Shown here piece after piece: positions 22,449 through 62,113 of a stretch of 64,000 nucleotides of DNA (its first letter is position 1; each line of letters opens with the position of its first letter). Source of the stretch: Heteronotia binoei (taxonomy: Eukaryota); contig NC_083227.1 of NCBI RefSeq assembly GCF_032191835.1, forward strand, positions 60,140,001 to 60,204,000, in the 5' to 3' direction. The position numbers and the translations under genes were made by a program. The notes beneath the pieces are model-generated. The model was not told the DNA's origin and made no database searches. It saw only the letters and a program-made list of their open reading frames with translations.

Positions 22449-22616
22449 TGTAATGTACTGGAAACCGAGACGGTTTGAAGGCAACATTGTTTATTGCGAG
22501 CACATTACAAAAGTGAGTACACGCGGCCGGGGTCCCGCATATATACATTTCCCCGGACGGCCCCCGGTCCGACCAGGCCAATCCTGGTCGGTTAAACTTC
22601 CCACCACAGATGTTGA
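22449..22616 (-). repeat. 3' LTR, U3-proximal ~100 bp deleted
   Basis: Identical to the 5' LTR except for 5 substitutions and a 2-bp indel. The match stops at agatgttga and runs directly into integrase sequence. Confidence 0.9.
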
Positions 22617-23412
22617 AGAAGTCCTGGGTTGGGCAACGGTGTGTGGCGCCGTATCTGGTCGATATGCCTCCTCAAGAGGAGGCCACCCTCCGTGGACACA
22701 TCGTAGTGACGGGACCCGGTTACTCGAAGTACCCGTCCCGCCACCCACTTGGGGCCGCTCGCGTAGTTCCTAGCGTACACGGGGTCCCCCGGGAAAAACT
22801 CCCTAGCCGCCTCTCTGCACTCGGGGGAGTTTTGGATGTCGGTGGCCCGGTCGGGGTGCAACCGATCTAGCCTCGTTATGAGTTTCCGTCCCATTAGCAG
22901 CTCGGCAGGGCTGACCCCCGTGACGGGGTTGGGAGTTATCCTATTGTCAAATAGGAATGCGGCTAGGCGGTGATCCCAGTCCCCCTGTACTATACAGCCC
23001 AGGGCCTCTTTGGTGGTGTGGACCATCCGTTCTGCCTGGCCGTTGGTAGCTGGATGGAATAAGCTACTGGGACCTCCCTCCCGTCCGGGAGTTGGTGACC
23101 CAGGACGGCGCCCACCCCATACAGCGATGCGTCACATGCAAGGATCACCGGTAGGCCCTCATCAAAATGGTGGAGCACATCGTTTGATGTGAGTAGGTCC
23201 TTTACCGCTTGGAATGCCGCTGCCTGTTTCTGTCCCCAAGCCCAGGGGGCATTCTTATCCAAGAGTCTGTGGAGGGGTTCTGCAATGGCGGCCTTGTGGG
23301 GCAAGAATGAATGGTAGAAATTTAATAACCCCAAGAAACTCTGGAGGTCCGCCTTGCTCTTCGGGGTTGGGGCTTCCACGATAGCTGTGGTTTTGTTGGG
23401 CGTCGGGTGGAT

Positions 23413-25328
23413 TCATGCTGCGTCCACCACAAACCCCAAGAACTCTACCCTGGGCACCCCCAGGGAGCACTTTTCCCGCTTTACTTTCAGGCTGGCCTCT
23501 TGGAAACGGCGGAGCACCTCACGCAGCCGGTTGCAGAATTCCTCCAGGTCTGGGGCAGCGATCAAAACGTCGTCGAAAAACGGCTGTACCCCGGGGATCC
23601 CTTTGAGGAGAGAATCCATCAGACTCTGGAAAACCCCCGGGGCCACGCTCACTCCAAACTGTAACCTCCGCACCTTAAACGCCCCCCTGTGGGACTATTG
23701 TCTGTGCCTCTGCCATGGCGGCGTCTACGGGCAGCTGCTGGTACGCCTGAGCCAGGTCTAATTTCCCAAAAATCTTGGACCCCGCCAGCGCAGCCAAAAC
23801 GTGGCTGATGACTGGGACCAGGTAGGGGTTATCCTGAAGTGCCTTGTTAATAGTGCACTTATAGTCTGCGCATATGCGCATGTCCCCGTTAGGCTTCACC
23901 GGGGTCACGATCGGAGTCTCCCATTCAGCGTGGGAAACAGGTTCCAGCACCCCCTGAGCCGTGAGGTGATCTAGCTCAGCCTCAATCTTAGGCTTTAGCA
24001 CAAACGGGACCCGCCTGGCCTTAAGACTTACTGGCCGCACTTGGGGGTCGAGAGGTAAGGATATGGGGGCCCCATAACACCCCAGGGCCCCATCAAACAC
24101 TTCCAGGAACTCTTTACACACGTCGTCGAATCCCCGCGTCCCCAGTTGCTGCACCCCCACTATTTTTATTCCCAGCGGCTGGAACCAGGCTAGCCCCAAA
24201 AGTGGACCACCAGTATTTCGAGGTTGCCCCTGAACCCCTTGTACTTCACCCCCACCGTTGCCTAACCCAGGACTTGTACAGGGTTCTTTTGGAAGTCCCG
24301 GAGCACGAAATCGGCCAGACGCAGTCTGGGCTGGCCCCGTGAGCACAGCCTCCTCAAGGATTCCTCCGATATTATGGAGATGGAGAAACCTGAGTCCAGT
24401 TCCATCAGGCAAGGCTTGCCCTCTATCCTGACTGAGACCTTGACCTTGCGGGGGGTCTCATTGGGCAAGTTCATTACCTGTACGCTGGTCGATGCTGTCG
24501 CGTAGTCCCCTGTCGATTCCTGGTTGGTTGCCAGGCGGTGGCGGGTGCCCTTGGACCGGCAGGCCCTTGCTATGTGGCCCATCTTGCCGCAGCTCCTGCA
24601 GAGCATGTGGCGGTAGGGGCAGTCCCTTCGCTCGTGTTGGTCCCTGCAGCTGGCGCACCTGGTCGAGGCTGGTCTCTCCGTCGCTCGGGGTCGCTGGGTT
24701 GCTCGTGGGTTCGTCCCTGGTTGGCGGCGCAGCTGGAGTGCCTTCTCCTCCTCCGGTCCGTAGGGGTCCATCTCTCCCTGGTGGACGGTGTCGGTTCTTG
24801 TTTTGGGAAAGGTCCTCGTGGACCGCTCGAACGCCACTGCCTCGTTGAAAGCTCTCTGGAGGGTGAGCTCTTCTCTCGTGAACAGCTTCTGTTGCAGCCT
24901 CTCGTCCCTCAGGCCCCAGACGAAACGGTCTGCCAGGGACTCTTCCAGCTGTGCGAAGCTGCATTTGCCTGCGATTTGGTGGAGGGCCGCCAGGTAGTCG
25001 GCGGCTGACTCTCCCGCCTCTTGGTCCCGCTTGTGGAAGAGGAAACGGCAGGCCACGCATGAGGGCTGTGGCAGGAAGTGCCCGGTAAGGAGCCGGACTA
25101 TCTCTTCATAGGACTTCTCCGTGATCCTCGCGGGGCCGAGAGACCCTTGGCGATCTCGAACGTGGCCGCCCCGCAGACGCTCAGGAGGACGTCCCGCTTC
25201 ATGCAGTCTTCAGTTATGCGGTTTGCCCGCAGGTAACACTCGGCCCGCTCTGTGTAGGTCTCCCATCCCTCCGGAGTAGCGGGGTTGAATTCTTCAAGAC
25301 AGCCCGTGGTCCCGCTCTGGGTAGCCAT
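23413..25328 (-). pseudogene. Frameshifted gag-protease-RT of the Gypsy element
   Basis: The domains are split over ORFs 25098-25328, 24262-25056, 23675-24412 and 23413-23673. Confidence 0.9.
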
Positions 25329-25410
25329 GGTGGCTGTGGCGGTGGCCGTGTTCGCTCAACGGGTTGCCTTGGTTGTCTCTGTTGGATTCGTTTGAATTTG
25401 GCGGGCTAGG

Positions 25411-25428
25411 ATCCCACCTTCGTCGCCA
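25411..25428 (-). promoter_or_regulatory. Primer-binding site, probably tRNA-Ser(GCU)
   Basis: TGGCGACGAAGGTGGGAT lies 1 nt from the LTR. It is complementary to the recalled vertebrate tRNA-Ser(GCU) 3' end ATCCCACCTTCGTCGCCA. Confidence 0.8.
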
Positions 25429-25429
25429 C

Positions 25430-25696
25430 TGTAATGTACTGGAAACTGAGACAGTTTGAAGGCAACATTGTTTATTGCGAGCACATTACAAAAGTGAGTA
25501 CACGCGGCCGGAGTCCCGCATATATACATTTCCCCGGACAGCCCCCCCGGTCCGACCAGGCCAATCCTGGTCGGTTAAACTTCCCGCCACAGATGTTGAG
25601 GGGCGGGGCCACTGGCGAGCCACATCCGGGAACCCGAGGGTCTCCCTTAGGTGACCATTGCCATGAGGCCTGGCCACTTATGAACAATACATAACA
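25430..25696 (-). repeat. 5' LTR (267 bp)
   Basis: The minus strand runs TGTTATG...CATTACA and contains a TATA-like tatatatg and AATAAA. It matches 22449-22616. Confidence 0.88.
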
Positions 25697-26454: not shown

Positions 26455-26900
26455 AACACAGAGAGAGGCAGAAAGGCAAAGAGAGGGGATCAGAGAGAGA
26501 GAGAGAGATGCAGAGAGGTAAAGAGAGGGCGACAGAGAGAGAAGGGCAGAGAGGAAGGCAAAGAGAGAGGGGGCAGAGAAAGGGGCAGAGAGGCAAACAG
26601 AGAGAAAGAGAGAGACAAAGAGAGAGGCAGAAAAAGGGGCAGAGAGAGAGAGGGGGACAGAGAGACAGGCAAAGAAAGGGGGCAGAGAGAGAGAAAGAGA
26701 GAGGGGCAGAGAGGGGGGAAGAAACAAAGAGAGGGGGGCAAAAAAGAGAGAGGCAGAGAGGGAGGGGCAGAGAAAGGGGCAAAGAGGCAAACAGAGAGAG
26801 AGGCAGAGAGGGGGCAGAGAGGCACACCGAACGGGGCAGAAAGAGGGGGCAGAGAAGCAGATAGAGACAAAAAGGGAGGGGCAGAGAGACAGAGAGATGG
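26455..26900. repeat. Degenerate (GA)n / GGCAGAGA purine-rich low-complexity tract
   Basis: About 450 bp composed almost entirely of A and G, with recurring ggcagagaga and aaggggcaga units. Confidence 0.95.
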
Positions 26901-30448: not shown

Positions 30449-30644
30449 NNNNNNNNNNNNNNNNNNNNNNNNNNNNNNNNNNNNNNNNNNNNNNNNNNNN
30501 NNNNNNNNNNNNNNNNNNNNNNNNNNNNNNNNNNNNNNNNNNNNNNNNNNNNNNNNNNNNNNNNNNNNNNNNNNNNNNNNNNNNNNNNNNNNNNNNNNNN
30601 NNNNNNNNNNNNNNNNNNNNNNNNNNNNNNNNNNNNNNNNNNNN
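30449..30644. other. Assembly gap (N run)
   Basis: A run of about 196 N. Confidence 1.
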
Positions 30645-43899: not shown

Positions 43900-44239
43900 C
43901 AGGGCCAGCACTAGGGTTTCTGGCACCCTAGTCCCTTGCCCCTGCAACAGTGAGGGTGAATGTGGTGGTGGCAGGCAGCTCAGCACTGAGTGCCTTAAAG
44001 CATACCTACCACCCTGCCACCAGCGGTGCCCCTTTCCTGCTGCCACTGCTCACCCGCCTGCAGGTAGGCAGCAAGGTGAAGGAGGGTGGTGGAGAAGTGG
44101 GCAGCAAGAGTTAGTGTGGAGGTGGGAAAGGGGCACTGGGGTAGCAGTGTGTGCATGGGGAGGGGCACCTACTGGTGGCCACCCCTGATGGCAGGTAGTG
44201 CCCTAGGCAGCCCCCTACCTGGCCTATGCACTGGCCCAG
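43900..44239. mobile_element. hAT MITE
   Basis: cagggccagc...ctggcccag, with a perfect 8-bp TSD CATCCAAA at 43892-43899 and 44240-44247. Confidence 0.85.
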
Positions 44240-44438
44240 CATCCAAAGGGTTTTTTTTTAAAAAAAACAACACTGTTTTAATGCTAGGCTTCCAGAGTTA
44301 GCCAAAATGGTCTCCCCCACCCCATTTGTCCACTAAAGCAGAAACAGAAAAATTTCAAAGCTTTCCCATGCTAGGGTCTTTCTTTACATGCCTTACATGT
44401 CTTTACATGCAATTTCATTCCATGCTGACGATGCCTCC

Positions 44439-45589
44439 TGTGACGGAAAGCAATGGGTTAACCATAATCTGAAGACTCACAGGGCTGCGTCAGGTGACCT
44501 GAGGGTGGGGGCAAAGTGCTGAGAGCTCTCAGGGAGGGAAAGTAGTTGAGTGAGAGAAACTGCTGAGGCAGGAGTTCAGTCAGTTGATGTCTGACAGAGT
44601 GGAGGCCTGTCAGAGAAGTCTGTCAGTGGGGACCTGACAGAGACTGAGGGGGTCAGTTCGGGCCTGGTAGAGGCTGAGAGGACAGCTGATCCTGTGAAGA
44701 AGCTGGAGACGGGGAAGTCTTCCAGAGACTGCCAGCTTGACCAAACCAGCCAAGAGGGCTGTGTGTGTGTGAGTCAGTTAAAACCGGAATGGTCACAGAC
44801 ACCAGGAAACTACTCTAAAGATCTAGTGAGGAGGTTGAGGGAGTGGATGTGGGTCTGAGACACCAAGAAGGGCTGAGAGGAGAGACTCCAGTCGAGGGGT
44901 GAGACTAGACACATCAATCCCAAGAGGCCAGACCTTGGCTAGAGGTGGAGAGTGAGTTAACGGGAAACTGTGAACTGTGTAACTGTGAAGGACTCAAGAA
45001 AGTAAAAGTGAATGTAAAGCCTGAAACAACAGAACAAAGTATAAGCCTGTGTAAATATCTCCCATATCCCCAGTTTAAGACTTTTTGTTACAATAAATCT
45101 GTGGTTTAAGTTAAAGTTCTCGTGAGCCTATATTGTGTGGGAAGAATAAACAAAGCTGCTGTGGTCCCATCAAATAAACAAGTAAAAATACCCCGAAGAG
45201 ACTAAAATATAGAGATCCAGTGAGGCCGTGAGGCGGGCGCTGCTATAATACACACACACAGCCCTCTTGGCTGGTTTGGTCAAGCTGGCAGTCTCTGGAA
45301 GACTTCCCCGTCTCCATCTCCAGCTTCTTCACAGGATCAGCTGTCCTCTCAGCCTCTACCAGGCCCGAACTGACCCCCTCAGTCTCTGTCAGGTCCCCAC
45401 TGACAGACTTCTCTGACAGGCCTCCACTCTGTCAGACATCAACTGACTGAACTCCTGCCTCAGCAGTTTCTCTCCTTCAACTACTTTTCCCTCCCTGAGA
45501 GCTCTCAGCACTTTGCCCCCCACCCTCAGGTCACCTGACGCAGCCCTGTGCGTCTTCAGATTATGGTTAACCCATTGCTTTCCGTCACA
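44439..45589. mobile_element. Non-coding element with ~335-bp terminal inverted repeats, TG...CA ends and a 5-bp TSD (unclassified)
   Basis: Arms at 44439-44770 and 45250-45589 differ by 3 substitutions and 3 indels. The ends are TGTGACGG...CCGTCACA. TSD CCTCC lies at 44434-44438 and 45590-45594. Confidence 0.9.
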
Positions 45590-47274
45590 CCTCCATTTAT
45601 TTTGTTGGTCTTTCCCCATCCTGCCACTCACTCCTCTGTGCCGCCTGCCACTGCCCCCCCCCCCCGTGTTCTAGTGAGGCAGTGACAGGAGGAATGTCAG
45701 GGCCCGGTGGAAGCCTGCTTTGGGTGCCCAGAAGTGGGGGAGAGCCAAGCAGGCAGTGGTGATGGCCAATGAGAGAGCAGCTGCCAAGTTTCCCAAGCAA
45801 AAACTGTCCTTTCCCCTCAACCCCTTTCTTCGGATGACAGTATGGGCATGACGCAGAACCCTTAGAAGCTGTCTCTTCCCAGATGGGAGGGAAAGGAGCA
45901 GGAAAGAGCTCTAAGCTTCCCATCTCAGCAAATGTCTCTCTTTATATTTCTTGCAAATTCCATTCTGCACTTATGATACCCCCCACCTTTATTTGGTTTG
46001 CATCCTGAATGATGGACAAAGTAAGCTATAGTGAAGCTTGTTCACTGATGATAGGGGAGAACCACTAACGTTCTGCTAAAATGGCTACTTGAGAGAAAAT
46101 ATGCATGGAAGAATCTCCTATTTCAATAAACAAGCCCAGCGCAAAACTGACCAATAAGAAGTGAGAGGAAGGACCTCAATGGGAGCAGAGGAGTGGCTTC
46201 TGAGGGGTGGGGAAAGGGGCACTGGGGAAATCCAAGGGAATATGTATGCTTTTGAATTACTTTCATCTTGGAAGTGAGGCAAGGGGAAAGACTGCCATAA
46301 ATCCACTCCCAAACAACACAGGCAAATAGCGAACAGAAAGTGAACTGAGCACTGAAGGGAGGAAAAACAATGCAGAACTGAACCCCTCCCACAGACGGAC
46401 ATGCACTGTAAGAGCGATGGGAATGCAGAATGACAAAGAAAACCCAATGGACATGCACAGTGAAAGTGAGGGAAAACACCAGTGCATAACAAACCCTTGT
46501 TAACGCATCTTCCTTCCTTCTTTAGCACAGGAGTGAGAGATGACAGGACAGTTTTTCTTCATAACACTTAGGTTATTGGAATTTTCATTTCAGTCAAATT
46601 GGAGAGTCAGTTATATTCACACTGATTTGTGTCTATACACACCTCTATAACCAGTGACAGTAGGCAACAGGCCTTGCTTGGGAATACGTTTTTTCTGATT
46701 GACCAGTTTGCTGCTTTATCAGTCTGAAGACTTTCCTAGCAAGCTGATCAGCTGCAAAGGAAACTAATCCTCAATCCCTTCAGAATATGGTTGAGAAATG
46801 AGTAAATATTTAAACAGATCATACCCTCCCCCTGAGGTAGAGCCTGAATTATTCTCCTAGGTTATGGTATAATTTCTGTTGATGCATGGCCTTGGGGCAG
46901 AACTAGATACAGTGCACAAGGAGGATCTACTGCCATTATCAACAACCCCAGAGTAAGTTTGCATGTAGTTGGAGGTGGTCTTTCTCTTAGATAAGACTGA
47001 TTATTTATCCTTGCTGAGGGAAGACTCTTGGATACAACTGACTGAATCTAACTGATTGAATTGAATTGGGAAGACAAATTGAGGACCTGAGGTCATCAGG
47101 GATGGAAGCTGCATAAATGTTGATTTTGAGCTGTTTGTATTAATTGGATTTCATGAGCAATTATGACAGAGCAGATAGAGTATGCTCTCCTCTTATTTAG
47201 ATTTGTCATATTCCTGAATATTTAAAATATTTAACAATCCCACAACATAGAAGAGCATTTATGTTAGCTAGATG

Positions 47275-47960: not shown

Positions 47961-50081
47961 TAATATGAATAAATAAATGAGACCAAGTTTGGGGTTGTGT
48001 TGGGTTATTAGGATTGTTTTTTAATTTTGTTAGTGTGATACTGCTCAAGGCCATTGGGTCAAATGAGTCATTTCATGTAAGTAAGTTCTCCTGCACCATA
48101 TGACAGAACTGCTGATCCTGCTCTTTCCCAGGAATGCTGCTTCCAGCATTAGGCTTCTGAAATCATCCTCAGCTTGGTTCCCACCCGCAGCTAAGCCATT
48201 GAGCATCCTATGCATGGACTCATCTTGGTTTATTGGAGTTTGCTGGACAAAGAAGCTGCCATGTTCTTAATGACCAAGTGTCAAGCTACCTGATTGGCCT
48301 CCTACACCCCACAGAAGAAAGCAGAAGCTCTGGAGTTGGCTATCCTGAACTGCAACAAAACCAAAACTTATTTTGCAGGTGTAGATTCTAAACAGCAGCT
48401 GTGGGATGTCCTTTACCTCAAAACCAGATTTTTCTACACATTGGGAGAGAAATCTGTGCACCATGCTCTTGCAGCGGTTGATCCAGGAGGTCCCTGCCTG
48501 CCAGATCCCTCCGATAAATGCCTTTAAATGAGGCATTTCTGGCAGAAGGCCACAAACCCTTGGAATGCTTTTATTTGTAACCCACATAACAGTTATATTC
48601 TTGTCAATGTTTATTGAGTTAAAATATAGCTTGGGGAGGAAAATTTCCCAATGTCTGGATACTTTCTTCCTTCTGTCCTTCTGTCCTTCCTCCCCATCCA
48701 CCCTTACAGTATGATTTTTGCATACTATGCAATTTACTGTTTGGAAGTTCTCCCTATTCTTCCTGTAACATTTTGACCCGTTTAATTTTCTCCTTTCCAA
48801 CAATCATTGGCTGTTGGTGGGGAAACAACTTAGGTAAGTCTGATAAAATATTGTCAGGAGCAGCCCTATGTATAATTGCAGTCTCATATCTAGTTCCACA
48901 CTCAGTTCTACACTAAGATTCCACCCCCCCCCCCACCCACCAGATTGGTAGGTAGTTTGCTTGAGTTACTTTTTACAGATCACCCCTTACAGTATTAATA
49001 GGGATGAATATATGTATATTCCTAACATGCTTAAAGCTACGCAGCTGCAGAAACCCATTTTAGTAATCTCCATACCAACTCAATAAATACCACCCCCAAA
49101 TAAATCCAGGAAATAAGTGTGCTTACTGGGCTGACAGCTATTTTTGTGGACTGAGAAGAGAACAGACATGAAATAGCACACGTCTGGTCAACTGTAAATA
49201 TGACAATTCAGCCCAGGGTTAATCCAGGATCCACACATTTGCTCCTTTCTCAAACTACTCAAACACAACTTCTGTAGATGCCTACAGGCGTTCTTAGGTG
49301 TTTTCACTGTAAGTAGATAGGTTACATTGGTAAGGTCAACTCCACTAGGTTACATTGGCAAGATCAACTCCACATGAGTTCCAGTAACCTGTGCACTAAA
49401 TCAACTAGTACAGATAAAAGCAGAATTTAATAACCATTATGAATAGTACCTTCCCAAATACCCTTAGGATAAAAAAAAAGTCCTCAGAAGTTAACACTAA
49501 ACCCTAGAACATGGAAACCAAATCTGTCAGTGAGCTCTTCTTGTACAAGAAGCTGGGGTAATTAGAACTGTCATTTGTCTCCACAGCTAGTTTTTTTTCC
49601 TAAATGCAAAACATCTCATTTCATTTGTTACAGAGATCCAATTGTTGGTTCTGCCTATTTGTTCATGTTTATGTTTAATTCGATTTATACCCTGCCCTCC
49701 CTGCCGAGGCCTGGAACTAAGTGTTTAAGCTTGGACCTGAGTGTTCTTACACAAACAAGGAAAATGTTACATAATATTTTAAAATGTTTGCATATAGATT
49801 GGGAAACTTTTCTTTTTGTATAGACTGAGCACAGCTCACTTTTAATATTTACTATTATTATTATTGTCGCTATTTATTTATTTATTGTTAACTGTTGTTA
49901 TGCAATAATTTATTTTGGCATTTGGGTCAAATGTGTCAATTTTGGGGTTTTTCCCTTTTTCTTCATTTGTCTAGATATATATCTCCATAATTTAGTGTCA
50001 TACAAAATGTCTTACACCAAATGCAAATTTCAGAATAAGATACTGGTTAATGGTATTAGAAAATTTAAACAGGGAAACTGA

Positions 50082-50722
50082 GAGCACAATCCAGAGGGGC
50101 AGGGGCCGGAAAGTCTTTTGGAAGCAGATGAGCCAGTACGTGGGTGCAGGAAGGGTTTGTTCCGTGGGCGGGGGGAGTTCTGTGGGTGGGAAGACGCCTG
50201 AGCACCGCTCCGTCCGAGGGCAGCGGTGCCTGAGGGCTGCACCCAAGCGTGGGCAGAAGTGAGGCGGAGCGCGGCGTTCAGGCGGAGGAGGGGGTGGAAT
50301 TGGGGGTGCAGCCAGGCTTAGGCGACTTCTGGAGCAGTTTGGCCCATGACACGCCCCCCCCCCCCCGAGAGGCACAACTTTACGCCTGCAAAAATGGCGG
50401 CGTGCCCCATAGGCACTCGTTGAAACCAAAAACAAAGGTCGCCTCCGCCGCTGCAGAAGCTTGCAAACTCCTTAGGGAGCGGCGTGATTGCCTTGCCAAT
50501 TCCCTCGCGCCTCGGGCTGACGAACCCCCTCCTCAGCACCCAATTGTGGTCTCCCCCCTCCTAGAAATACTTCCGCTCTGGCCTCACACAACTCAGTCGT
50601 TAGGGAGAGGAGCGTGTGGCAGGAAGCTCTGCTAGTGAGCTCCCAGCCATACAGATACTGTATGGACTTTCCATACAGATACTGTAAGGACTTTCCAGCC
50701 TGCCCCCCTCAGGATTGCGCTC
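50082..50722. mobile_element. CpG-rich non-autonomous DNA element with GAGCACAATCC/GGATTGCGCTC termini
   Basis: About 33-bp imperfect TIRs at 50082-50115 and 50689-50722. The superfamily is not established. Confidence 0.6.
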
Positions 50723-50831
50723 TCAGTTCCCTGTTTAAATTTTCTAATACCATTAACCAGTATCTTATTCTAAAATCTGCATTTGGCCAACGCCATGCTG
50801 GGAATTATCAGGAAGGAAATTGAGAACAAAT

Positions 50832-51931
50832 GACGATGGTGTCTACATCCGCTATCGCACCAATGACAACCTGTTCAACCTGAGGCGACTAAAGGCCCAC
50901 TCCAAGACAATGGAAAAACTTATCCAAGAGCTACTGTTTGCTGATGCTGCTGCACTTGTCTCCCACTCGGTATCAGCTCTGCAGCATATGACGTCCTGCT
51001 TTGCAGAGGCTGCCAAGCTATTCGGCCTAGAAGTTAGTCTGAAGAAGACAGAAGTTCTCCACCAGCCTGCACCCCAGGAAGATTATCATCCTCCTTGCAT
51101 CACTGTGGGTGAATCAGTTTTGAAGACAGTCCAGCAGTTCAGCTACCTGGGGTGCATCATCTCCTCAGACGCCAAGATCGACAAGGAGATTGACAACAGG
51201 CTGGCAAAGGCAAACCGTGCATTTGGCCGACTGCATAAAAGAGTGTGCAGCAACAAGCATCTGAAAAAAGGCACAAAGATCAATGTTAACAAAGCGGTTG
51301 TGATGACAACCCTCATCTACGGCTCCGAATCGTGGGTTTTATACCGTCATCACCTGCGACTCCTTGAGCACTTTCATCAGCGCTGCCTTCGCACCATCCT
51401 CAACATCCACTGGAGTGACTTTGTAACCAACACTGAAGTCCTCAAGCGGGCGGAGGTTACAAGCATCGAGGCATTGCTGTTGAAGACGCAGCTGTGCTGG
51501 GCAGGGCATATCTCCAGGATGGAAAACCACTGCCTTCCCAAGATTGCCCTGTATGGCGAACTTTCCACCGGCCATCGAAATAGAGGGGCACCAAAGAAGA
51601 GGTACAAGGACTCCTTGAAGAAATCCCTTGGTACCTGTTGCATTAACCATCACCAGTGGCCTGACCTAGCCTCAGATCGCAAAGCATGGAGGCACACCAT
51701 CCACCAGGCTGTCTCTTCCTTTGAGAACGCACGCATAGCTGGTCTTGAGGACAAAAGGAGATTGAGGAAGAATCGTACTGCTACAGCACCAACCCCAAAT
51801 CAGACTTTTCGCTGCAGCCACTGTGGCCGGACCTGCCTGTCCCGCATTGGTCTTGTCAGCCACCAGCGAGCCTGCAGCAGACGTGGACTACTGCACCTTT
51901 CTTAAATCTTCGTTCACGAAGTCAAGCCGAG
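50832..51931 (+). mobile_element. RTE-clade LINE, 5'-truncated, uninterrupted ORF (RT C-terminal part plus Cys/His motif)
   Basis: GVYIRYRTNDNLFNLRRLKAH...LLFADAAAL (catalytic FADD changed to FADA), FSYLG, RGAPKKRYKD and CSHCGRTCLSRIGLVSHQRAC. The tail is aagccgaga. A 65-bp direct repeat flanks it. Confidence 0.93.
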
Positions 51932-52342
51932 ATTCTGAAATCTGCATTTGGCCAACGCCATGCTGGGAATTATTAGGAAGGGAATTGAGAACAAATCAGC
52001 CAGTATCATAATGCCCCTGTATAAATCAATGGTGCGGTCTCATTTGGAATACTGTGTGCAATTCTGGTCACCGCACCTCAAAAAGGATATTATAGCATTG
52101 GAAAAAATCCAGAAAAGGGCAACTAGAATGATTAAAGGGTTGGAACACTTTCCCTATGAAGAAAGGTTAAAACGCTTGGGGCTCTTTAGCTTGGAGAAAC
52201 GTCGACTGCGGGGTGACATGATAGAGGTTTACAAGATAATACATGGGATGGGGAAAGTAGAGAAAGAAGTACTTTTCTCCCTTTCTCACAATATAAGAAC
52301 TCGTGGGCATTCGATGAAATTGCTGAGCAGTCAAGTTAAAAC

Positions 52343-58208: not shown

Positions 58209-59035
58209 AGCCAGTTTGGTTTAGGTGGTTAAGTGTGTGGACTCTTAACTGGGAGAACCTGGCAGGGACTGACCAAGAGAAAGATCTTGGGGTCGTGGTA
58301 GATAACTCACTGAAAATATCAAGAGAGTGTGCGATTGCAATAAAAAAGGCCAACACCATGCTGGGAATTATTAGGAAGGGAATTGAAAACAAATCAGCCA
58401 GTATCATAATGCCCCTGTATAAATCGATGGCGCGGTCTCATTTGGAATACTGTGTGCAATTCTGGTCACTGCACCTCAAAAAGGATATTATAGCATTGGG
58501 AAAAGTCCAGAAAAGGGCAACTAGAATGATTAAAGGGTTGGAACACTTTCCCTATGAAGAAAGGTTAAAACACTTGGGGCTCTTTAGCTTGGAGAAACGT
58601 TGACTGCAGAGTGACATGATAGAGGTTTACAAGATTATGCATGGGATGGAGAAAGTAGAGAAAGAAGTACCGTACTTTTCTCCGTTTCTCACAATACAAG
58701 AACTCATATATATATAAATTTTTGACCACTGTGTGATACAGAGTGTTGGACTGGATGGGCCATTGGCCTGATCTAACATGGCTTCTCCTATGTTCTTATG
58801 AACCAAGTTTGATTCCCCACTCCTCCACTTACTGCTGGAATGGCCTTGGGTTATCCATAGCTATCACAGGAGTTGTCCTTGAAAGGGCAGCTTCTGTGAG
58901 AGCCCTCTCAGCCCCACCCACCTCACAGGGTGTCTGTTGTGGGGGAAGAAGATATAGGAGATTGTAAGCTGCTCTGAGTCTCTGATTCAGAGAGAAGGGT
59001 GGAGTATAAATCTGCAGTCTTCTTCTTCTTCTTAA
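58209..59035 (+). mobile_element. Squam3-like SINE split by a CR1 insertion
   Basis: The head lies at 58209-58259 and the remainder at 58801-59035. AACC is duplicated at 58256-58259 and 58801-58804. Confidence 0.85.
58260..58800 (+). mobile_element. CR1 3' fragment with an internal deletion
   Basis: ORF 58235-58603 (EKDLGVVVDNSLK...HLEYCVQFW). Relative to the 52000 copy it jumps from aagaactc to the (TA)n UTR. The tail is ttatg. Confidence 0.92.
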
Positions 59036-61908: not shown

Positions 61909-62113
61909 GAGGGATGGTGGCTCAGTGGTAGAGCATCTGCTTGGTAAGCAGAAGGTCCCAGGTTCAATCCCTGGCATCTCCAAAAAAGGGTCCAGGCAAA
62001 GGTGTGAAAAATCTCAGCTTGAGTCCCTGGAGAGCCGCTGCCAGTCTGAGTAGATAATACTGACTTTGATGGACCAAGGGTCTGATTCAGTATAAGGCAG
62101 CTTCATATGTCCA
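61909..62113 (+). mobile_element. tRNA-derived SINE (Squam2/Anolis SINE2-like) inserted in a MIR-like SINE
   Basis: A box TGGCTCAGTGG and B box GGTTCAATCC, followed by a body and the tail ggtctgattcagtataaggcagcttcatatgtccatatg. Confidence 0.85.

Follow-up and report, generated by a model that had tools for sequence, protein, structure and literature searches.

How does a mobile element come to combine the termini and the target-site duplication (TSD) of an integrase-inserted retroelement with two long inverted arms? This question is raised by a 1151-bp element in DNA of the gecko Heteronotia binoei (assembly GCF_032191835.1, contig NC_083227.1, positions 60,140,001 to 60,204,000 of the forward strand). 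The whole stretch of 64,000 nucleotides that was analysed is called the window here, and positions are counted from its first letter. The element is a real, unusual insertion structure. Its plainest description, and our best reading of its layout, is a unit of ~810 bp, running from 44439 to ~45249, to which its own first 332 bp are appended in inverted form, starting from a (TG)6 tract. For its origin we favor, at close to an even chance, a one-off event in which a Gypsy-type long terminal repeat (LTR) that carried the inverted copy of its own first 332 bp was inserted by integrase through two ends of U3 (unique 3′) type.

Pairwise alignment of the left arm (44439-44770, 332 nt) with the reverse complement of the right arm (45250-45589, 340 nt) leaves three substitutions (left/right positions 44477/45551, 44550/45476 and 44551/45475) and three indels over 340 columns. 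An earlier note, made from the letters of this DNA, had given the same counts. The indels measure 1, 1 and 6 nt, and in every case the extra bases are in the right arm. With blastn the arms are 96.8% identical (E 5e-161), and their longest perfect match is 152 bp. A self-comparison of the window gave 21 inverted pairs, of which this one is the longest; 11 others among the matches listed are shorter, less alike and at least 567 nt apart. The element starts with TGTGACGG and ends with CCGTCACA, which gives TG...CA termini, and CCTCC at 44434-44438 recurs exactly and in direct orientation at 45590-45594. Two random 5-mers would agree with a probability of 0.0013 (window composition) to 0.0017 (2-kb flanks). 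These termini and the exact duplication had been proposed in the earlier note and are borne out, as is its description of the 479-nt spacer (44771-45249) as devoid of a long open reading frame (ORF). The longest of the 23 ORFs of at least 40 amino acids that overlap the element have 87 residues (arm into spacer) and 93 residues (flank into arm), which is no credible coding capacity, and a Pfam scan of five of the 23 returned no match.

An inverted structure could also be made by the library or the assembly, either as a fold-back chimera or as a misjoin of two LTR loci. Two of the three arm indels fall in homopolymer runs and look like sequencing errors, and the assembly is scaffolded, with a 196-base gap at 30449-30644. 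This gap is the sole one of the window and lies 14 kb off; there is none near the element. A fold-back, however, would invert the flank too and give GGAGG on the right, where the direct CCTCC is observed. A misjoin of two loci would require the two 5-mers to agree by chance, at only about 0.0015, and the dinucleotide run of 11-12 nt is, in our judgement, too short for bridging. Because the right flank is direct and not inverted, we consider an artefact very improbable.

If the arms were the terminal inverted repeats (TIRs) of a DNA transposon, symmetric inner boundaries would be expected, and the element is asymmetric. Purines on the plus strand make up 0.63 of the left arm, 0.67 of 44771-45040, 0.55 of 45041-45249 and 0.36 of the right arm. 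A single change of composition is best placed at 45262 (two log-likelihood unit range 45233-45305), i.e. at the right junction. Under Markov models of order 1, 2 and 3 trained on the left arm, the score of 44772-45040 is equalled or exceeded by 10, 5 and 7 of 1238 background segments, respectively. The polyadenylation-like hexamer AATAAA, of which the earlier note had listed one (about 45094), is present in three copies (45092, 45145 and 45173), all on the plus strand and 70-160 nt before the right junction, with none on the minus strand of the element. At least three such hexamers occur in 5 of 2498 background segments of 209 nt.

By this anatomy the ~810-bp unit resembles an LTR. We infer its identity from the anatomy rather than from a homologue because a primer-binding site (PBS), a polypurine tract (PPT) and a gag-pol remnant are absent beside both arms. 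The first TGG past the junction falls inside the right arm. The 15 nt ahead of the two arms hold 6 and 12 purines, and 12 of 15 is reached by 5.4% of the 15-mers of the window. Between 40 and 50 kb neither Pfam nor tblastn detected Gypsy protein remnants. A minus-strand element that would have its 3′ LTR in the right arm was considered and rejected, as neither a PPT nor a pol remnant accompanies it. Inside the arm, short and imperfect sub-repeats, direct and inverted, surround CTGACAGA at 44575-44642 (and 45384-45450), similar to U3 enhancer repeats.

Membership of the ~810-bp unit in the Ty3/Gypsy (Metaviridae) LTRs is likely on these features. The conserved features of Metaviridae LTRs are the att (attachment) motifs (TG/CA) and AATAAA (PMC3601003; here and below, publications are cited for the parts of their text that were available). 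The unit shares with solo Ty3/Gypsy LTRs, and with rGmr1 and Sushi termini, the TG...CA att motifs, a 5-bp TSD, a 3′ AATAAA, the non-coding character and a fitting length (PMC3601003). Both ends of the element fit the rGmr1 motifs TGTNANR and CGTNACA (PMC3601003, Table 3). The right terminus copies the left, so this fit counts as one observation, and TGTNACG is not a rare 7-mer (5 found in the window, 5.77 expected). Among those listed, rGmr1 LTRs measure 294 to 1160 bp, a range that spans both 810 and 1151 (PMC3601003). LTR elements typically have TSDs of 3-6 bp (PMC10045372), and a neighbouring Gypsy element at 22449-25696 likewise has a 5-bp TSD, with one mismatch. A solo Gypsy LTR ends in U5 with an inverted repeat of ~7 bp (PMC3601003), whereas here the left end recurs on the right, inverted, over 340 bp.

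DIRS elements have inverted repeats, use a tyrosine recombinase and leave no TSD, and the element differs from them by its TG...CA ends, its 5-bp TSD and the lack of coding matches. The likeness to DIRS is that of a retroelement with inverted terminal repeats (inverted LTRs, PMC5633606). With Ginger1 and Ginger2/TDD elements it shares TGTNR termini, long TIRs and an integrase-type TSD (PMC2836005). Ginger1 has 4-bp TSDs of CCGG or CCGT and TIRs of 40-270 bp, and animal Ginger2 has a 4-bp TSD at RTATAY and TIRs of 50-180 bp (PMC2836005), in contrast to the 5-bp CCTCC and the arms of 332/340 bp found here. In TSD length the element fits only the protist TDD-4/5 of Dictyostelium, with 5-bp TSDs and TIRs of 260-297 bp (PMC2836005). 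The lizard Gingers named in the available text of that paper are only the domesticated genes Gin-1 and Gin-2. GingerRoot/IS3EU (6-bp TSDs, mostly TA ends) and Polinton (6-bp TSDs, AG ends) differ from the element on both counts. Membership in the described Ginger, GingerRoot, Polinton and DIRS groups is therefore rejected on the features tested.

If the element were a DNA transposon with long TIRs that relies on a Ginger-like or other integrase-related transposase to move, its size and lack of coding would suit a non-autonomous member, and the TGTNR termini and the 5-bp TSDs of TDD-4/5 speak in favor of this. Its TSD, TIR length or termini, however, mismatch those of animal Gingers, GingerRoot/IS3EU and Polinton; unlike Gingers, the element has no transposase and an asymmetric, LTR-like interior, and a TIR transposon has no need of one-sided continuity or of clustered poly(A) signals. 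We regard this explanation as highly doubtful. The first of the two readings offered in the earlier note, a non-autonomous long-TIR family mobilized by a Ginger- or Gypsy-type integrase, is weakened in its Ginger form by the mismatch in TSD and TIR length.

The second reading of the note, a solo LTR whose cDNA folded back at the TG microsatellite, fares better in part. Composition, poly(A) signals and termini are best fitted by an LTR that carries its 5′ part a second time, inverted; folding back at the microsatellite would be only one way among several to obtain such a molecule. The hallmark of concerted integrase action is two precise att ends with a 5-bp stagger (PMC2857682). One-ended integration that is repaired by the host usually leaves long duplications or deletions at the junction (PMC5041404). 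As only 5 bp are duplicated here, integrase likely acted at both ends, and since the signature of one-ended repair is lacking, the inverted copy most likely predates the insertion.

We therefore propose that before integration the first 332 bp of U3 would have been added, inverted, to the U5 end of the cDNA, by one of three routes. (i) A free plus-strand 3′ end may have annealed to the (TG)n tract, either of the same plus strand or of a second one, and been extended from there to the U3 terminus. (ii) In autointegration, the U3 of another cDNA may have served integrase as the target for the U5 end, with joining to the opposite strand. (iii) Two cDNAs may have been inserted in concert by their U3 ends, with subsequent collapse of the palindromic center. 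Priming by a free viral 3′ end is known to occur on both strands of viral DNA, whose sequence is thereby appended (PMC5041404), and opposite-strand autointegration yields inversions (PMC7197481, PMC2644782). The (TG)n tract at the breakpoint holds 5 of the 23 TGT sites of 44439-45240. All three routes give the same outcome in the window sequence, and none is singled out. Two identical att ends on the DNA would then allow one concerted integrase step and produce the exact 5-bp TSD. Internal gag-pol would have been absent, or lost through LTR-LTR recombination. The present copy, having no PBS, PPT or coding capacity, would be a dead one-off insertion.

Several known systems come close to this proposal. 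In aberrant retroviral integrations and autointegration inversions an element end is likewise joined to further, inverted element sequence (PMC5041404, PMC2644782, PMC7197481). What results there is a dead circle, or an insertion in which the host repaired one end and left long duplications or deletions, in contrast to the two precise ends and the 5-bp TSD in a germline assembly found here. In the complex LTR insertions of Triticeae, ascribed to template switching, a rearranged cDNA was integrated as a unit with a normal 5-bp TSD (PMC1950507). These complexes comprise three LTRs, described there in direct orientation only, whereas the element here contains an inverted partial LTR.

The inversion could also postdate the insertion. 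A plain solo LTR with its CCTCC TSD may have been rearranged in place, either by a template switch, in which replication departed at the end of the LTR, used 340 nt of the opposite strand as template starting from (TG)n, and came back via short terminal homology, or by nesting, in which a second element inserted antisense within the first and the outer part was removed by a precise deletion. Template switches generate inverted repeats in vertebrate genomes (PMC5453318), and one that follows insertion would retain the TSD and need short terminal homology only. Exit at the terminus means use of one of 12 TGT sites in 43939-44759, which is not wildly improbable if a 3-nt homology guides the return. 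Both switches must nevertheless fall on the two LTR termini, and the switch events in PMC5453318 are described as short. Antisense self-nesting of an LTR element has been observed for EVD (PMC11624286), but nesting demands an additional, base-precise deletion.

The arm indels bear on the template switch as well. Reverse transcriptase errors could also account for them. All three enlarge the right arm and two lie in homopolymers; polymerase theta adds single bases to homopolymer runs at high rates (PMC2441791), and for this reason host repair synthesis stays in play. Taken together, rearrangement after insertion is unlikely in our estimate.

Divergence between the arms is 0.9% (Poisson 95% range 0.19-2.6%), with one transition and two transversions besides the three indels. 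None of the substitutions is a CpG transition, and the four CpG sites common to both arms are all intact. The LTR pair of the neighbouring Gypsy element, used as control, differs by five transitions (four at CpG), no transversion and one indel in 170 columns. This suggests a young structure, in which the arms came to differ because copying was error-prone, because two templates were not quite identical or because the assembly contains errors.

A multi-copy origin is also conceivable. A propagating gecko Gypsy-type family would have a mobile unit with two inverted U3 ends. It may take the form of an LTR with ~335-bp inverted termini, a DIRS-like panhandle RNA and insertion by a DDE integrase, or that of an LTR-derived TIR element mobilized as DNA. 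We consider such a family unlikely. In the LTR form the whole 1151-bp unit would be the LTR of a family whose U5 captured an inverted U3, the palindromic structure would spread by ordinary retrotransposition, and the locus would be a normal solo LTR. Here the precise ends and the TSD are explained without any unusual local event, 1151 bp falls within the rGmr1 LTR lengths listed, the arm differences, being unlike post-insertion decay, may have accrued in the source lineage, and multi-copy families should be sampled more readily. Against this, genomic RNA of such a family would form a ~330-bp panhandle over U5 and U3 that should impede reverse transcription and attract double-stranded RNA (dsRNA) surveillance; no such family was found in the literature searched (by literal phrase matching, with few subscription papers), and there is no second copy in the 64 kb. 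We rate this LTR form as quite unlikely.

A number of results weigh against the one-off insertion of a Gypsy-type LTR by two U3 ends. The rGmr1 U3 is described as T-rich, from a fish training set (PMC3601003), whereas the left arm is purine-rich, and according to a preprint, in its available part, reptiles other than turtles have genomes depleted of Gmr1-like elements; the rGmr1 clade label is weak for both reasons. Over the whole spacer the similarity to the left arm is modest, since its score under the arm-trained models of order 1, 2 and 3 is equalled or exceeded by 198, 30 and 44 of 1226 background segments. The longest word shared by arm and spacer has 11 nt, which 73 of 1226 background segments match or exceed. 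Within 45240-45261 there is no clear inverted match of the left terminus (best 6/10, inside the CA run), and the junction allows more than one parsing, so that the end of the putative LTR is placed only to 45247-45252. The 64-kb window contains no second copy, direct-repeat partner or gag-pol for 44439-45249. With six events per pair, the contrast in mutation spectrum between the arms and the control LTRs reaches only about 0.08 (Fisher two-sided, calculated by hand), and assembly errors in the arms would mimic the observed differences. No paper in the literature searched describes insertion by two U3 ends in vivo. Finally, a multi-copy family should be likelier than a unique event to be sampled by a random window.

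Searches for relatives covered proteins, bacterial and archaeal genomes, plasmids and phages; eukaryotic genomes were not among these collections, so copy number is not covered by them. In the window itself blastn (word 7) revealed no further copy of any part of the element. The 87-residue arm-spacer ORF had no candidate in a set of 5.8 billion proteins and no match in 1.84 billion representatives, none of the 198 candidates passed when the 93-residue flank-arm ORF was compared with longer proteins, and the 22-nt terminus had no match in bacterial and archaeal genomes; plasmids and phages gave no match either. These empty searches carry almost no weight because the ORFs are probably spurious and the real gag of the neighbouring Gypsy element obtained just three matches (E 1e-20). 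Over the element, Rfam gave nothing above threshold and two sub-threshold chance matches (E 0.31 and 0.36). The Pfam scan comprised, besides the five element ORFs, 75 of the 84 window ORFs of at least 100 residues (six AG-repeat and three N-containing ORFs were left aside). Three of these 80 matched, every one with a retroelement domain outside the element. A described element of this architecture was not found in the literature searched, and a repeat library may already contain it. The available parts of an S. osmophilus preprint and of PMC6894440 hold no inverted-LTR precedent.

AATAAA hexamers in introns are often ignored, and this keeps a hairpin transcript possible at the locus. The earlier note had expected a ~330-bp dsRNA hairpin from read-through. 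The RNA is indeed predicted to fold into one long stem (-844 kcal/mol; at such length no shuffled controls were run). Both read-through routes, however, meet AATAAA: a plus-strand transcript would reach the three hexamers ahead of the right arm, and a minus-strand transcript would encounter one at 45596-45601, in the flank immediately ahead of the element. A transcript begun near the TATA-like site at 45040 would be without the left arm. Formation of the hairpin is thus possible, upon read-through transcription only. Reading over the ORFs of at least 75 residues, among those listed, without a dedicated test, gave no recognisable host exon, and no host gene was identified. Similar to Mu killer and the antisense-nested EVD loci, the element is an inverted duplication of transposon origin, from which hairpin RNA could arise and act to silence the family (PMC11624286); it differs from them in its vertebrate host, in its different origin and in being known from DNA sequence alone.

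If the element arose once, it would be a germline record of an LTR integrase that inserted DNA via two U3 ends, for which we found no in vivo precedent in the literature searched. LTR finders based on direct repeats would miss the structure and TIR finders would misfile it as a DNA transposon; screening for such structures could gauge how frequent the event is. If the locus is transcribed through, the stem of 152 bp perfect and 330 bp near-perfect pairing could become a substrate for ADAR or for small-RNA silencing directed at the parent family, comparable to Mu killer in maize. If the element is multi-copy, it would mark a direct path from LTR to TIR architecture. A propagating family would be a living intermediate between LTR and Ginger-type TIR elements, whose evolutionary connection has been discussed (PMC2836005, PMC3601003), and its dispersed copies would supply hairpin RNA directed at the parent family.

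Table 1. Coordinates of the element and of its observed and putative parts (positions in the window).
Feature	Position	Strand	Basis or remark
Left TSD, CCTCC	44434..44438	.	chance match 0.0013-0.0017
Putative LTR unit, ~810 bp (left arm and spacer), read as U3-R-U5, Gypsy-type	44439..45249	+	purine profile; 3′ limit approximate, 45247-45252; LTR identity from anatomy
Left arm, 332 nt, 5′ part of putative U3	44439..44770	+	alignment
Integrase att-like terminus matching TGTNANR	44439..44445	+	rGmr1 and Sushi rows of PMC3601003 Table 3 (available part); weak alone
(TG)6 tract, start point of inverted copy	44760..44771	+	sequence
Spacer, 479 nt, non-coding; 5′ half like left arm on the same strand	44771..45249	+	Markov models
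TATA-like TATAA, putative LTR core promoter	45040..45044	+	motif scan
Three AATAAA, poly(A)-signal-like (45092, 45145, 45173)	45092..45178	+	motif scan
Right junction: GC-rich putative LTR end, short AT stretch unexplained by left arm, then (CA)n of inverted copy	45229..45260	+	
Right arm, 340 nt, inverted copy of 44439-44770, second U3-type att end	45250..45589	-	alignment
Right TSD, CCTCC	45590..45594	.	sequence

The surrounding window is repeat-rich vertebrate DNA with a CpG observed/expected ratio of 0.22. The neighbouring Gypsy retrotransposon (22449-25696, minus strand) is broken. It has TG...CA ends and flanks of ATATT and ATGTT, which differ by one mismatch; Pfam detects a gag zinc knuckle and a reverse transcriptase-RNase H region, the integrase region is largely missing and the 3′ LTR lacks its 5′ part. 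We take this element to be Mag-like. The three matches of its gag piece at E 1e-20 or better are all predicted proteins of Heteronotia binoei, with 76-77% identity.

Only 200 bp upstream of the two-ended element lies a ~340-bp element (43901-44239) with short imperfect inverted ends that start with CAGGGCCAG, partly similar to 564-638; it is possibly a miniature inverted-repeat transposable element of hAT type, as we assume. An ORF of 382 residues at 50757-51902 (plus strand) has a partial RVT_1 match below the Pfam cutoff and presumably represents the 3′ half of an RTE/BovB long interspersed element (LINE). Just upstream of it is a second, shorter inverted pair (50017-50118 and 50686-50786; 102 nt, 89%, 567 nt apart). 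The segments 51950-52302 and 58348-58705 are 355-bp direct repeats with 94% identity, whose translations we take to resemble the 3′ ends of CR1-type LINEs. A degenerate, AG-rich low-complexity array occupies 26460-26855. The sole Rfam match at gathering level is a tRNA-Thr(GGT)-like sequence at 61910-61982 (plus strand). The anticodon GGT is unusual in eukaryotes, and this sequence may be a pseudogene or the head of a short interspersed element.

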